Shown in pieces: positions 4,195 through 11,793 of a DNA stretch of 15,728 bases (the stretch's first letter is position 1; every line of letters starts with the position of its first letter). Made by a program: the position numbers and the translations under genes. Source of the DNA: a virus (lineage: Duplodnaviria; Heunggongvirae; Uroviricota; Caudoviricetes); the IMG/VR virus record IMGVR_UViG_2740892229_000020; one strand, written 5' to 3'. Under the pieces are notes generated by a model. It was not told the DNA's origin. It saw only the letters and a list, made by a program, of their open reading frames with translations, and ran no database searches.

Positions 4195-4434
4195 TTGAAT
4201 TTCAGCAGGCTCCGGGGAGTGCGAGGGGTGAAGCGGACGCGTGAACGTCGGTGTGACCAGCTGAAATCAACTCAACACTTCATACCTCAGTCGCTTCAAC
4301 GAGGCGACTTAGTTATGACAACCGGCGGCCATCCACCGCCTGAATACGCGCAGAAGTCTCAATATGTTCAGCAGCCCAGCTTACGGGCAGGAGTTTTTTA
4401 TGGTTCATCAACATTACGGAACGCAGACCGTTAA
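4195..4434 (+). CDS. Possible small arginine-rich protein (79 aa); weak candidate for an N-like factor, uncertain
   Basis: ORF begins just downstream of the pL-like promoter with an Arg-rich N-terminus (RLRGVRGVKRTRERR). No convincing Shine-Dalgarno; overlaps the next ORF by 35 nt. Not similar to lambda N as far as I can recall. Confidence 0.2.
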   Translation: MNFSRLRGVRGVKRTRERRCDQLKSTQHFIPQSLQRGDLVMTTGGHPPPEYAQKSQYVQQPSLRAGVFYGSSTLRNADR

Positions 4435-4882: not shown

Positions 4883-4892
4883 NNNNNNNNNN
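4883..4892. other. Run of 10 N (assembly gap or masked junction)
   Basis: Exactly 10 ambiguous bases; the following 104 bp (4893-4996) are a near-copy of 5007-5110. Confidence 0.95.
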
Positions 4893-4996: not shown

Positions 4997-5006
4997 NNNN
5001 NNNNNN
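4997..5006. other. Run of 10 N (assembly gap or masked junction)
   Basis: Exactly 10 ambiguous bases between two near-identical copies of the same coding fragment. Confidence 0.95.
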
Positions 5007-6501: not shown

Positions 6502-6511
6502 NNNNNNNNNN
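6502..6511. other. Run of 10 N (assembly gap or masked junction)
   Basis: Sequence after the run restarts inside the gam 3' end and repeats bet with substitutions. Confidence 0.95.
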
Positions 6512-7291: not shown

Positions 7292-7301
7292 NNNNNNNNN
7301 N
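7292..7301. other. Run of 10 N (assembly gap or masked junction)
   Basis: The 93 bp after the run (7302-7394) repeat the 93 bp before it (7199-7291) with a few substitutions. Confidence 0.95.
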
Positions 7302-8158: not shown

Positions 8159-8316
8159 AGCATCCTCACGATAATATCCGGGTAGGCGCGATCACTTTCA
8201 TCTACTCCGTTACAAAGCGAGGCTGGGTATTTCCCGGCCTTTCTGTTATCAGAAATCCACTGAAAGCACAGCGGCTGGCTGAGGCGATAAATAATAAACG
8301 GGGGCTGTATGACTGA
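8155..8316 (+). CDS. Small protein, lambda orf60a-like with an altered C-terminus (53 aa)
   Basis: ATG 8155 overlaps the exo stop (ATGA). [53 protein letters not shown]; the first ~47 residues match the 60-aa orf60a-like ORF at 9389..9571. Confidence 0.5.
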
Positions 8317-8866
8317 TTTCACCGGAAGCAATACTCCTGCCGAACATCGCGACAGCTGGCGCACACCACCAGAGATTTTTGCTGCGCTTAATGCAGAGTT
8401 CGTTTTTCAACTTGATGCTGCCGCCAGCGAAAAAAACCGACTATGTCGGCTTTTTATCTCACAGGAGCAGAACACATTAACCACTTCATGGCCTGAAGCA
8501 ATGGGATATGCCTCTGGTTATGTCTGGTTGAATCCACCATACAGCAATATTTCCCCTTTTGTGAAAAAGGCAGCCACTGAAAACAAATTCAGTAGTGTGG
8601 GATGTGTAATGTTATTGCCTGCTGACACATCTGTCGGATGGTTTCATGAAGCGATACAAACCGCCAGTGAGGTCAGATTCATCACGGCAGGACGACTGGC
8701 ATTTATTAACCCACTCACTGAGAAACCCGTCAGTGGAAATAATAAAGGCTCGATGCTCATTATCTGGCACCCATACCCCCGTACACACTGCCACTTTACG
8801 ACCGTTGATCGTGGAGAGTTGATGGCGTTCGGCTCAAGGATTCTTGCCCGTCGGGAGGCTGCATGA
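8309..8866 (+). CDS. Phage-type DNA N6-adenine methyltransferase (Dam family), 185 aa
   Basis: Catalytic NPPY motif (YVWLNPPYSN). Size and overall sequence character fit the small phage Dam N6-A methyltransferase family. Start overlaps the upstream ORF. Confidence 0.75.
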   Translation: MTDFTGSNTPAEHRDSWRTPPEIFAALNAEFVFQLDAAASEKNRLCRLFISQEQNTLTTSWPEAMGYASGYVWLNPPYSNISPFVKKAATENKFSSVGCVMLLPADTSVGWFHEAIQTASEVRFITAGRLAFINPLTEKPVSGNNKGSMLIIWHPYPRTHCHFTTVDRGELMAFGSRILARREAA

Positions 8867-8942
8867 CAACCACGGAATGCATTTTTCTGGCAGCGGGCTT
8901 CATATTCTGTGTGCTTATGCTTGCCGACATGGGACTTGTTCA

Positions 8943-9158
8943 ATGACACCTCAGCAGGAAAACGCCCTTCGCAGCATTGCCCGTCAGGCTAATTCTGAAA
9001 TCAAAAAAGCCAGACAGCAGTTTCCGGATAAAAACGTCGATGACATTTGCCGTAGCGTACTAAAGAAGCACCGCGAAACGGTAACGCTGATGGGATTCAC
9101 ACCGACTCATTTAAGCCTGGCGATCGGCATGTTAAACGGCGTCTTTAAGGAACGGTGA
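8943..9158 (+). CDS. Hypothetical early-left protein, 71 aa (lambda orf61 region)
   Basis: MTPQQENALRSIARQANSEIKKARQQFPDKNVDDICRSVLKKHRETVTLMGFTPTHLSLAIGMLNGVFKER; present identically in both cassette variants (second copy inside 9716..10027). An N-terminal extension from an upstream start (TTG 8844) is possible. Confidence 0.55.
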   Translation: MTPQQENALRSIARQANSEIKKARQQFPDKNVDDICRSVLKKHRETVTLMGFTPTHLSLAIGMLNGVFKER

Positions 9159-9180
9159 ACATGAAAAGCAAAATCATCAG

Positions 9181-9204
9181 GGAGCTACAGGCTCCTTTTT
9201 TATT
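9181..9204 (+). terminator. Candidate intrinsic terminator (tL-like) inside the early-left operon
   Basis: Stem GGAGC (9181-9185) / GCTCC (9191-9195), loop TACAG, then TTTTTTATT. Confidence 0.45.
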
Positions 9205-9265
9205 GTTCGCATTCATCCTCAAGCGTATTAACCAACAATTCAGGGATTAATGGAAGATGGCAGAC

Positions 9266-9275
9266 NNNNNNNNNN
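9266..9275. other. Run of 10 N (assembly gap or masked junction)
   Basis: Sequence before the run ends at …TGGAAGATGGCAGAC, which recurs at 10118-10135; sequence after the run restarts inside the exo 3' end. Confidence 0.95.
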
Positions 9276-9392: not shown

Positions 9393-9571
9393 CGCATCCT
9401 CACGATAATATCCGGGTAGGCGCGATTACTTTCGTCTACTCCGTTACAAAGCGAGGCTGGGTATTTCCCGGCCTTTCTGTTATCCGAAATCCACTGAAAG
9501 CACAGCGGCTGGCTGAGGAGATAAATAATAAACGAGGGGCTGTATGCACAAAGCATCTCCTGTTGAGTTAA
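9389..9571 (+). CDS. Lambda orf60a-like protein, 60 aa
   Basis: ATG overlaps the exo stop (ATGA). [60 protein letters not shown] matches my recall of lambda orf60a. Confidence 0.65.
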
Positions 9572-9735
9572 GAACGAGTATCGAGATGGCACATAGCCTC
9601 GCTCAAATTGGAGTCAGGTTTGTGCCAATACCAGTAGAAACAGACGAAGAATTTCATACGTTAGCCGCATCCCTTTCACAAAAGCTGGAAATGATGGTGG
9701 CGAAAGCAGAAGCAGATGAGAGAGACCAGGTATGA
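9544..9735 (+). CDS. Lambda orf63-like protein, 63 aa
   Basis: 63-codon ORF overlapping the orf60a 3' end and overlapped by the next ORF by 20 nt, which is the arrangement I recall for orf63/orf61 in lambda. Confidence 0.65.
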   Translation: MHKASPVELRTSIEMAHSLAQIGVRFVPIPVETDEEFHTLAASLSQKLEMMVAKAEADERDQV

Positions 9736-10027
9736 CAACCACGGAATGCATTTTTCTGGCAGCGGGCTTCATATTTTGTGTGCTTATGCTTGCCGACATG
9801 GGACTTGTTCAATGACACCTCAGCAAGAAAACGCCCTTCGCAGCATTGCCCGTCTGGCTAACTCTGAAATCAAAAAAGCCAGACAGCAGTTTCCGGATAA
9901 AAACGTCGATGACATTTGCCGTAGCGTACTAAAGAAGCACCGCGAAACGGTAACGCTGATGGGATTCACACCGACTCATTTAAGTCTGGCGATCGGCATG
10001 TTAAACGGCGTCTTTAAGGAGCGATGA
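9716..10027 (+). CDS. Hypothetical early-left protein (lambda orf61 region), 103 aa from ATG 9716; shares its C-terminal 71 aa with 8943..9158
   Basis: ATG 9716 lies 20 nt before the orf63 stop. An alternative shorter start is MTPQQ at 9812, which has a GGGA Shine-Dalgarno-like element. Confidence 0.55.
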   Translation: MRETRYDNHGMHFSGSGLHILCAYACRHGTCSMTPQQENALRSIARLANSEIKKARQQFPDKNVDDICRSVLKKHRETVTLMGFTPTHLSLAIGMLNGVFKER

Positions 10028-10049
10028 ACATGAAAAGCAAAATCATCAG

Positions 10050-10073
10050 GGAGCTACAGGCTCCTTTTTTATT
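10050..10073 (+). terminator. Candidate intrinsic terminator (second copy of the 9181..9204 hairpin)
   Basis: GGAGC (10050-10054), loop TACAG, GCTCC (10060-10064), then TTTTTTATT. Confidence 0.45.
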
Positions 10074-10125
10074 GTTCGCATTCACCCTCAAGCGTATTAA
10101 CCAACAATTCAGGGATTAATGGAAG

Positions 10126-10761: not shown

Positions 10762-11427
10762 ATGAGCGCTATAACCAAAGAACGTATCAAATTATTCATT
10801 AAAAATCCGCTTGATAACGGACTTACTCGTGGCGAACAAATGGAACTGGCACGAATTGCACTGGCATCACTGGAACGCGAACAGATTCGCCACGAGCATG
10901 CCAAATGGTCTGACTCCACATTTGGCTGCGTTGGCCCCATTGGTCCGCTGAAACATCTCTCAAAAGAGGCACTGGAAGCCGCAGCCGAACCTGACGATCT
11001 CAGCGAGTGGGCTGATATGCAGTTCCTGTTGTGGGATGCACAGCGCCGTGCTGGTATCAGTGATGCTGAAATTACCGCTGCTATGGAAAATAAATTGAAG
11101 ATCAACATGGAGCGCCAGTGGCCTGAACCAAAAGATGGTGAGCCTCGTTTGCACATTAAAGAACCCGGCAACTCTCCGGTAACTCCGGATGGTTGGATAA
11201 GCTGTAGTGAGCGAATGCCTGAAATGGGAGAGCGACAATGCTATGTGTTAGCAGCTGACTTTAAAAACAACTACCCACCAAACATCCCCAACACTCAGGT
11301 CGGCGTATATGGCGACTGGTTTAATGATGGCAAGCCCACTTGGGATGACGGTGATGGCGAAGACCTGTATCTCAAAGAGGTAACCCACTGGATGCAGCTA
11401 CCAGAACCGCCGCAGGAGGTGAAATGA
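10762..11427 (+). CDS. DUF551-like prophage protein (221 aa)
   Basis: AGGAG 6 nt upstream of ATG 10762. C-terminal segment …CYVLAADFKNNYPPNIPNTQVGVYGDWFNDGKPTWDDGDGEDLYLKEVTHWMQLPEPPQ matches the characteristic DUF551 C-terminus from memory. Confidence 0.65.
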   Translation: MSAITKERIKLFIKNPLDNGLTRGEQMELARIALASLEREQIRHEHAKWSDSTFGCVGPIGPLKHLSKEALEAAAEPDDLSEWADMQFLLWDAQRRAGISDAEITAAMENKLKINMERQWPEPKDGEPRLHIKEPGNSPVTPDGWISCSERMPEMGERQCYVLAADFKNNYPPNIPNTQVGVYGDWFNDGKPTWDDGDGEDLYLKEVTHWMQLPEPPQEVK

Positions 11428-11510
11428 TGAATTGGCCTGAAGCATTCACCGCAGTTGGAGTTGCAATAGCGGTGGCATTTATTCTGTATTCGCTTTTCCG
11501 CTGGGGATAA
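11424..11510 (+). CDS. Small hydrophobic peptide (28 aa), predicted single transmembrane helix
   Basis: Strong Shine-Dalgarno AGGAGG (11414-11419) 4 nt upstream; ATG overlaps the upstream stop (ATGA). MMNWPEAFTAVGVAIAVAFILYSLFRWG. Below the ORF-track size cutoff. Confidence 0.5.
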   Translation: MMNWPEAFTAVGVAIAVAFILYSLFRWG

Positions 11511-11514
11511 AGGA

Positions 11515-11757
11515 ATGTTCGCTCTGATTCAACGTGGTCAGATATACACGGACAGAGCCGGATACCCTGTGGTGATTACTCGCAGTACTCAGCACTCAGT
11601 GTTCTTTCGACGCATGGACGGGCGCTCCGGACGGGTACGCATTGGTGAGTTCAACAACCTGTTCGAACATATTGACCAACAGGAGTACCGCAAAATTCTG
11701 GCGGGCACTGAGCAGGAAATGCGCCTGAAAAAATTACGCGCAATGCAACGGAGGTGA
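11515..11757 (+). CDS. Hypothetical protein, 80 aa (possibly DUF4222-like)
   Basis: Complete ORF in the early-left gene string; MFALIQRGQIYTDRAGYPVVITRSTQHSVFFRRMDGRSGRVRIGEFNNLFEHIDQQEYRKILAGTEQEMRLKKLRAMQRR. Family call is a weak recollection. Confidence 0.55.
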   Translation: MFALIQRGQIYTDRAGYPVVITRSTQHSVFFRRMDGRSGRVRIGEFNNLFEHIDQQEYRKILAGTEQEMRLKKLRAMQRR

Positions 11758-11783: not shown

Positions 11784-11793
11784 NNNNNNNNNN
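11784..11793. other. Run of 10 N (assembly gap or masked junction)
   Basis: Interrupts an ORF that begins at ATG 11761 (MHTAFEF…) and resumes in-frame sequence after the run. Confidence 0.95.

Follow-up and report, generated by a model that had tools for sequence, protein, structure and literature searches.

The window analysed in this study, a 15,728-nucleotide (nt) stretch of viral DNA from the Caudoviricetes (IMG/VR record IMGVR_UViG_2740892229_000020), carries two copies of an 84-nt open reading frame (ORF) that encodes a hydrophobic peptide of 27 amino acids (aa) and overlaps its neighbouring genes by four bases at both ends. With a probability of about 0.72, we consider this ORF to be a real gene, translated as part of the lambdoid early leftward (pL) operon in its exo-xis region, which is that of phage lambda itself: it would produce a membrane peptide and couple the translation of its neighbours. 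As part of the same reading, the gene annotated as orf61, which has 61 aa in lambda, 93 aa in Shiga toxin (Stx) phages and 103 or 104 aa in the window, would carry N-terminal extensions mis-annotated in the wrong frame. The genes of this region are ordered gam, bet, exo, orf60a, orf63 or dam, 'orf61', orf73/TraR and ea22, onward to xis and int. According to the sequence and the ORF list, the first copy of the peptide ORF (8863..8946, plus strand, like all features below unless stated otherwise) runs from the ATG at 8863 to the TGA at 8944-8946 and its product is MTTTECIFLAAGFIFCVLMLADMGLVQ. Its ATG overlaps the TGA stop of dam, which encodes a phage DNA N-6-adenine methyltransferase of 185 aa (8309..8866; Pfam PF05869, E=2e-56), in the sequence ATGA at 8863-8866, and its own stop overlaps the ATG of a 71-aa ORF (8943..9158) in the ATGA at 8943-8946. 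The second copy (9732..9815, ORF list) follows orf63 (DUF1382, 9544..9735; Pfam PF07131, E=3e-31), with which it shares the ATGA at 9732-9735, and its stop overlaps the start of a second 71-aa ORF (9812..10027, ORF list); it differs from the first copy by a single synonymous base (TTC to TTT), and the two proteins are identical. An earlier note, which had proposed such an ORF with its start and stop overlapped by neighbouring genes in both the dam and the orf63 context, was thus correct on this point. Similar overlaps join the neighbouring genes of the operon, namely exo/orf60a and orf60a/dam, and orf60a/orf63 in the orf63 context. The length of 27 aa is in itself unremarkable, as 77 ORFs of at least 20 aa were found in 4 kb; the ORF stands out from chance because of the comparative evidence, i.e., the conserved junctions, the intact reading frame and the selection in the peptide frame only.

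The same DNA can also be read in the frame of orf61, and the two readings are mutually exclusive over this stretch. The long alternative-frame ORFs that the earlier note had pointed out are indeed present, one of 104 aa with a TTG start at 8844-9158 and one of 103 aa with an ATG start at 9716-10027 (ORF list), and the note had proposed that synonymous and non-synonymous changes be compared in each frame. For this comparison, copies were pooled from IMG/VR, metagenomes, phage records and Escherichia coli genomes and reduced to 215 distinct 704-nt contexts, in which 35 distinct substitutions were counted over peptide codons 2-27. The outcome favoured the peptide (omega about 0.36, P about 0.003) over the long ORF, whose omega was about 0.9. 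Read in the peptide frame, 17 substitutions were synonymous and 18 non-synonymous (S17:N18), against a neutral expectation of 23.5-26.4% synonymous (omega 0.33-0.38, P = 0.001-0.004). Synonymous variants were also far more frequent than non-synonymous variants (Mann-Whitney p=0.00036): every common variant is synonymous, the synonymous ones reaching 72 contexts, and the non-synonymous ones occur in 1-5 contexts each, mostly as singletons. The long frame, which is also that of the 93-aa Orf61, looked neutral over the same stretch (S9:N26, omega 0.93), the third forward frame gave 7:28, and omega was 0.9-1.3 in the forward frames other than that of the peptide. For the 71-aa ORF in the same sequences, the ratio was S29:N39 in its own frame (omega 0.45, P=0.0013) with no signal in the other frames, so the coding signal changes frame at the ATGA. 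The orf63 control, whose protein has a nuclear magnetic resonance (NMR) structure (PMC10869804), gave an omega of 0.68, which was not significant. The coding signal of the peptide is therefore at least as strong as that of its accepted neighbours, the 71-aa ORF and orf63, and the variation is periodic over three bases, in phase with the peptide frame.

These results bear directly on the possibility that the published reading is right, with the stretch encoding the N-terminus of Orf61 in its 61-, 93- or 103/104-aa form, and that the 27-aa ORF is an untranslated accident of the alternative frame. The 93-aa frame is uninterrupted in nearly every copy, the 93-aa Orf61 is annotated in many phage records, and the gene has been treated in its extended form in the literature (PMC6213356, PMC8614690); phrog_303 and phrog_26061 include the extension as well, though they were built from those same annotations. 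However, the 93-aa frame lacks purifying selection over this stretch, and its common variants are radical (H>N, G>R, H>Y, T>A). The 103- and 104-aa versions take their start codons from non-homologous upstream genes, and with ACT, the prevalent allele at base 12, the long frame acquires a TGA (bases 12-14) that closes these ORFs in most contexts. The 93-aa start has no Shine-Dalgarno (SD) match (-2.6/-3.8 kcal/mol). An AlphaFold2 model of the 93-aa Orf61 gave a predicted local distance difference test score (pLDDT) of 40-52 for residues 1-20 and of 73-91 for the body, and the published model likewise leaves out residues 1-23 (PMC8614690). The NCBI pipeline calls a protein of 71 aa, which aligns to positions 23-93 of phrog_303. 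Altogether, we regard the extended Orf61 as very unlikely. The 22-codon extension of the 93-aa Orf61 (8877..8942, MHFSGSGLHILCAYACRHGTCS), which lies in the 71-aa frame and overlaps the peptide ORF, was judged non-coding, and the 71-aa ORF, called as a coding sequence by PGAP and selected in its own frame, appears to be the true body of 'orf61'. Compared with lambda orf61 and the Orf61 of Stx phages (vb_24B_7c, 933W L0070; phrog_26061, phrog_303), the peptide is thus encoded by the same DNA in a different reading frame, and the present evidence splits 'orf61' into a 27-aa peptide gene and a 71-aa gene.

It could also be proposed that the constraint is due to an ORF on the opposite strand (8796-8930, minus strand, MSASISTQNMKPAARKMHSVVV...) that shares its third codon positions with the peptide frame. 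The antisense frame is open, and the five most frequent variants are synonymous in it as well (S8:N13). Yet on the same data it scores below the sense frame (8:13 vs 11:10), and its ATG is lost in 11 copies through a C>T change at base 66. Only its first 22 codons lie in the conserved module; it then runs on through unrelated antisense sequence, to a length of 44 aa in the dam context and 61 aa in the orf63 context. Its transcription would moreover require a separate promoter directed against pL, and the promoter scan showed none upstream of it. We find this explanation hardly credible.

The peptide ORF is widespread and its junctions are strictly kept. In lambda itself (J02459, 30928-31008, minus strand) an identical peptide is encoded in another frame inside the annotated orf61 (30839-31024). 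By tblastn against 50,697 phage records, the peptide was found in 175 records and unchanged in 138 of them, with no match outside the E. coli lambdoid group. The 84-base stretch occurs at 4259 sites in 3144 of the 5426 complete E. coli genomes (~58%), always with at least 90% identity. The upstream ATGA junction was kept in all copies compared (324/324), which represent 11 upstream sequence variants within the two gene contexts, orf63 and dam, and one of these two contexts preceded the peptide in 418 of 420 cases. Phages with different upstream genes become homologous precisely at the peptide ATG (query_from 162-164), which argues that the peptide and the 71-aa ORF travel together and form one mosaic module. 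The peptide ORF was intact in 310 of 315 copies and the 71-aa ORF in 294 of 315; most copies with a broken 71-aa ORF share with laboratory lambda a frameshift from A6 to A7. The peptide sequence itself was unchanged in 187 of the 215 contexts. Even the most divergent E. coli allele, with five synonymous and two non-synonymous changes and a GTG start of the 71-aa ORF, keeps the overlap as GTGA. This GTG start was seen in 14 of the 215 contexts and also in E. coli CRE444 (601-684 of its locus), where CAA has become CAG; the change is synonymous in the peptide and the four-base overlap is retained. Several other matches were set aside: two divergent-looking ones of ~51% identity (P0090, P0096) came from frameshift-ridden, low-quality assemblies, a further candidate homologue (P0057) was interrupted by an insertion sequence (IS) element, and most matches in the scan of genome contigs were lambda contamination in unrelated genomes.

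The arrangement of the overlaps raises the question of translational coupling. The predicted anti-SD duplex at the peptide start is -10.3 kcal/mol in the dam context, among the strongest of the operon, and -5.6 kcal/mol in the orf63 context. At the start of the 71-aa ORF it is -3.9 kcal/mol, the weakest among the ATG and GTG starts of the recognised genes of the operon, most of the others having -5 to -10 kcal/mol. This weak downstream SD together with the invariant upstream ATGA fits termination-reinitiation from the upstream gene to the peptide and from the peptide to the 71-aa gene. Ribosomes ending at orf63 (in lambda and most prophages) or at dam (in others) would re-initiate at the overlapping peptide ATG, probably helped in the dam context by the SD-like element GGGAGG (8853..8858), which lies inside the end of dam, 4 nt before this ATG. 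The peptide would then insert into the inner membrane as a single helix, and the ribosomes stopping at its TGA would re-initiate at the overlapping ATG or GTG of the SD-poor 71-aa gene, by which the small ORF may also deliver ribosomes to orf61. In its overlaps at both ends and its weak downstream SD, the peptide ORF resembles the ATGA-coupled genes of many phage operons and looks like a relay ORF. The small ORF might, then, be translated purely as a relay from orf63 or dam to the 71-aa gene, with a functionless peptide that is degraded. The double ATGA overlaps, the weakest SD of the operon at the 71-aa start and the retention of the overlap where this start became GTG would all suit such a role. 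But a pure relay needs only an open frame, and here a constraint on the amino acids is evident (omega 0.36, P about 0.003), with 187 of 215 contexts encoding the identical peptide and non-synonymous variants rare beside the synonymous ones. The strong hydrophobicity is likewise unexpected for an arbitrary spacer ORF. Since the amino acids are under constraint, a pure relay role is unlikely, and the peptide ORF, unlike a plain coupling device, is probably more than a relay.

The 76 nt that remain between the gene calls of PGAP could instead be conserved for a non-coding reason, as an element of the pL transcript or of the DNA such as an RNA structure, a weak internal promoter or a protein-binding site. 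The stretch is intergenic according to PGAP, and a promoter p2-lambda (-35 ATGCAT, -10 TCATATTCT) has been predicted in it with a low BPROM score of 0.59 (PMC4195576, Table 3). Our own promoter scan, however, found no plus-strand site in the stretch, Rfam gave no match to it, and the RNA folds were no more stable than those of shuffled sequences (z=+0.55, +2.1), being less stable in the orf63 context. Neither a DNA or RNA element nor a weak promoter would produce the three-base periodicity in the peptide frame, and we give this explanation very little credence.

We therefore return to the interpretation of the ORF as a translated peptide gene, against which several observations have to be weighed. 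The module is confined to Escherichia, with DNA identities of at least 90% in the genomes and at least about 92% among the homologues, and protein searches found no relatives of the 71-aa ORF outside this genus. With only such close homologues, the selection test rests on polymorphism and on just 35 events. Part of the synonymous signal is shared by the antisense frame with coincident third codon positions (S8:N13). In the dam context the spacing between the SD-like element and the ATG is short (4 nt). Membrane insertion and topology of the peptide are uncertain because it has no basic residues and its hydrophobic core is short (15-16 residues). According to a review (PMC8614690), ribosome profiling of lambda 'confirmed' orf61 and contributed just two further ORFs here, of 7 aa and 31 aa; ribosome footprints over the peptide stretch could have been credited to orf61. 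Finally, in one lineage, Escherichia sp. E1V33 (1925-2005 of its locus), a 14-nt deletion destroys the peptide frame. This deletion takes peptide codons 3-7 and places the ATG in the 71-aa frame, giving a 93-aa fusion. The same locus has a third type of upstream gene (ending ...LTEAA*), joined through the same ATGA, and in the peptide frame it otherwise differs from the window by three synonymous substitutions and a conservative one (A>V).

The peptide consists of a short polar N-terminus (MTTTE), a hydrophobic core of 15-16 residues (CIFLAAGFIFCVLMLA) and a short tail (DMGLVQ). Its GRAVY (grand average of hydropathy) is 1.62, and the 15-residue core from C6 to L20 sums to -3.5 kcal/mol on the Hessa scale; a 19-residue window reaches +0.3 on this scale because of D22. 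It has two acidic residues and no basic residue. It is most likely a single-pass peptide of the inner membrane. The ORF, its junctions and distribution, the selection specific to its frame and the hydrophobicity of its product are observed, and from them we infer translation, membrane insertion and coupling. Several small single-pass inner-membrane proteins are known from E. coli, its phages and prophages and other bacteria, including DinQ (27 aa), TisB (29 aa), ShoB (26 aa) and KdpF (29 aa), and SidA of Caulobacter (29 aa). The peptide resembles them in having fewer than 30 residues and a predicted single hydrophobic helix, and in belonging to a class that gene callers routinely miss. It differs from these proteins in lacking family similarity: searches of Pfam, the defence-system collection PADLOC and PDB sequences gave no match, a PHROGs match to a 'membrane protein' at E=0.68 is not meaningful, and an NCBIfam match to MtrF (E=0.034) was spurious.

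The earlier note had suggested that small membrane peptides of this kind often act as host-targeting toxins or division inhibitors, and for the present peptide such a role is speculation. A type I toxin-antitoxin system was not recognised at the locus: Rfam identified no RNA family, and no antisense RNA antitoxin was apparent. On the minus strand the promoter scan gave a single, weak match (8869-8840), and promoter-like sites were as numerous as would be expected from shuffled sequences. Unlike stand-alone toxin loci, the peptide ORF is embedded in an operon and coupled at its start and stop, and its product has no basic residues. Lambda Kil, KilR of the Rac prophage, DicB of Qin and Gp0.4 of T7 are soluble division inhibitors that target FtsZ or MinC. 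Like them, the peptide is a small early phage protein encoded in the same kind of operon; unlike them, it is hydrophobic and has no homology to them. Lambda kil is located a few kb upstream on the same pL transcript and is, in classical lambda genetics, the lethal pL function, which argues against a strongly lethal or bactericidal peptide. We consider it more likely that the peptide would modulate an inner-membrane protein of the host early in lytic growth than that it would kill the cell. The mRNA of the exo-xis region is plentiful early in lambda infection (PMC4195576), and deletion of the whole exo-xis region in phi24B lowers the envelope-stress genes degP and htpX (PMC10789677, Table 4). 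These circumstantial data are compatible with a membrane-active product and are not gene-specific.

The earlier note had also called the peptide unannotated, which holds only in part. PGAP and RefSeq leave a 76-nt gap over the peptide and then call the 71-aa coding sequence, and no annotation of the peptide was present in RefSeq or in the phage records examined. However, some GenBank and UniProt entries do list it as a hypothetical protein: the exact 27-aa sequence was found in the protein collection on 981 contigs ('hypothetical protein BE964_26140', UniRef A0A0A2SGE8_ECOLX). The peptide is thus neglected rather than strictly unannotated. Two 428-aa proteins (P0006, P0007) that fell into its 90%-identity cluster are unrelated, a clustering artefact of very short sequences; the sequence of P0006 resembles a glycosyltransferase. 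In older phage records the stretch is covered by a 93-aa ORF from the ATG at 8877 (933W L0070, Sakai H0081), in the lambda record by the 61-aa orf61 and in E. coli B by a 104-aa ORF. The peptide was not mentioned in those papers on the exo-xis region that were searched for it (PMC8614690, PMC6213356, PMC10789677, PMC4195576), and a full-text search of the literature for its sequence returned no paper.

The 71-aa gene is itself frameshifted in laboratory lambda. In this phage (J02459, ~790-870 of its locus, corresponding to 9001-9006 of the window) there are seven A residues instead of the six of its relatives, and this frameshift cuts the 71-aa ORF to 29 aa and leaves the 27-aa peptide intact. 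The same A7 frameshift was seen under the name 'ZapA, frameshifted' in a laboratory strain, and as lambda contamination in many unrelated assemblies. The name 'cell division protein ZapA', which PGAP gives to many copies of the 71-aa protein, was not supported, since Pfam PF05164 scored 16.1 bits against a cut-off of 23.8. Searches of the 71-aa protein against NCBIfam gave no match and Foldseek against PDB gave nothing below E = 1, so no functional clue was added. A pro-lytic effect of orf61 has been described from the phenotype of its deletion (PMC6213356). The peptide ORF lies inside the 5' part of the annotated orf61, and all published orf61 deletions would also remove the peptide. Because the 71-aa gene of laboratory lambda is frameshifted and the peptide intact, it is conceivable, though on balance doubtful, that the peptide and not the annotated Orf61 is the effector of the lambda 'orf61' phenotypes and binds a host inner-membrane protein in early lytic development.

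The window was assembled as a scaffold of short contigs, as is evident from its six 10-N gaps (4883-4892, 4997-5006, 6502-6511, 7292-7301, 9266-9275 and 11784-11793), and after 9275 the sequence resumes within the 3' end of exo. The two exo-xis 'variants' therefore come from different contigs or prophages: the peptide is present in both, as had been noted, but what had been described as cassette variants are two contigs that runs of N connect into one scaffold. Downstream of each 71-aa ORF, and joined to it by a GTGA or ATGA overlap, is a small ORF of 31 or 29 aa (9155..9250 and 10024-10119, ORF list) with the product MNMKSKIIRELQAPFLLFAF(I/T)LKRINQQFRD. Its coding signal is weak, and it is a neighbour and not a part of the peptide. 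It is probably the 31-aa 'orf2313' of the lambda ribosome profiling cited in PMC8614690. It holds a strong terminator-like hairpin (AGGGAGCT-ACA-GGCTCC followed by a T run; 9179-9197 and 10048-10066), and the hairpin at 9179-9197 is the terminator t2 predicted between orf61 and orf73 (PMC4195576). A second hydrophobic ORF, of 28 aa (MMNWPEAFTAVGVAIAVAFILYSLFRWG), lies at 11424-11510, its ATG overlapping the stop of a 232-aa DUF551 ORF. It has the strongest SD match of the window (-11.6 kcal/mol) and was found with its flanks (11380-11560) in 547 of 5426 E. coli genomes; it was called as a gene on one contig and has no PGAP annotation in the records listed.

Lambda serves as the reference among temperate phages, and the exo-xis region of its genome is being actively studied for the lysis-lysogeny decision and for the induction of Shiga-toxin phages. 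ORFs of fewer than 30 codons that are overlapped at start and stop are systematically dropped by annotation pipelines. If the peptide gene is real, the maps of lambda and the Stx phages need a 27-aa gene and a shortened orf61 of 71 aa, and the published models and alignments of the 93-aa and 61-aa 'Orf61' contain a segment that is not made. The phenotypes of orf61 deletions could then not be assigned to one product, and in lambda they may be those of the peptide. Should the peptide be the effector, it would represent a new functional lambda gene present in more than half of the sequenced E. coli. As a conserved, membrane-active peptide encoded in ~58% of complete E. coli genomes, it would also be a candidate for the effects of this region on the host, such as the induction of envelope-stress and chaperone genes.

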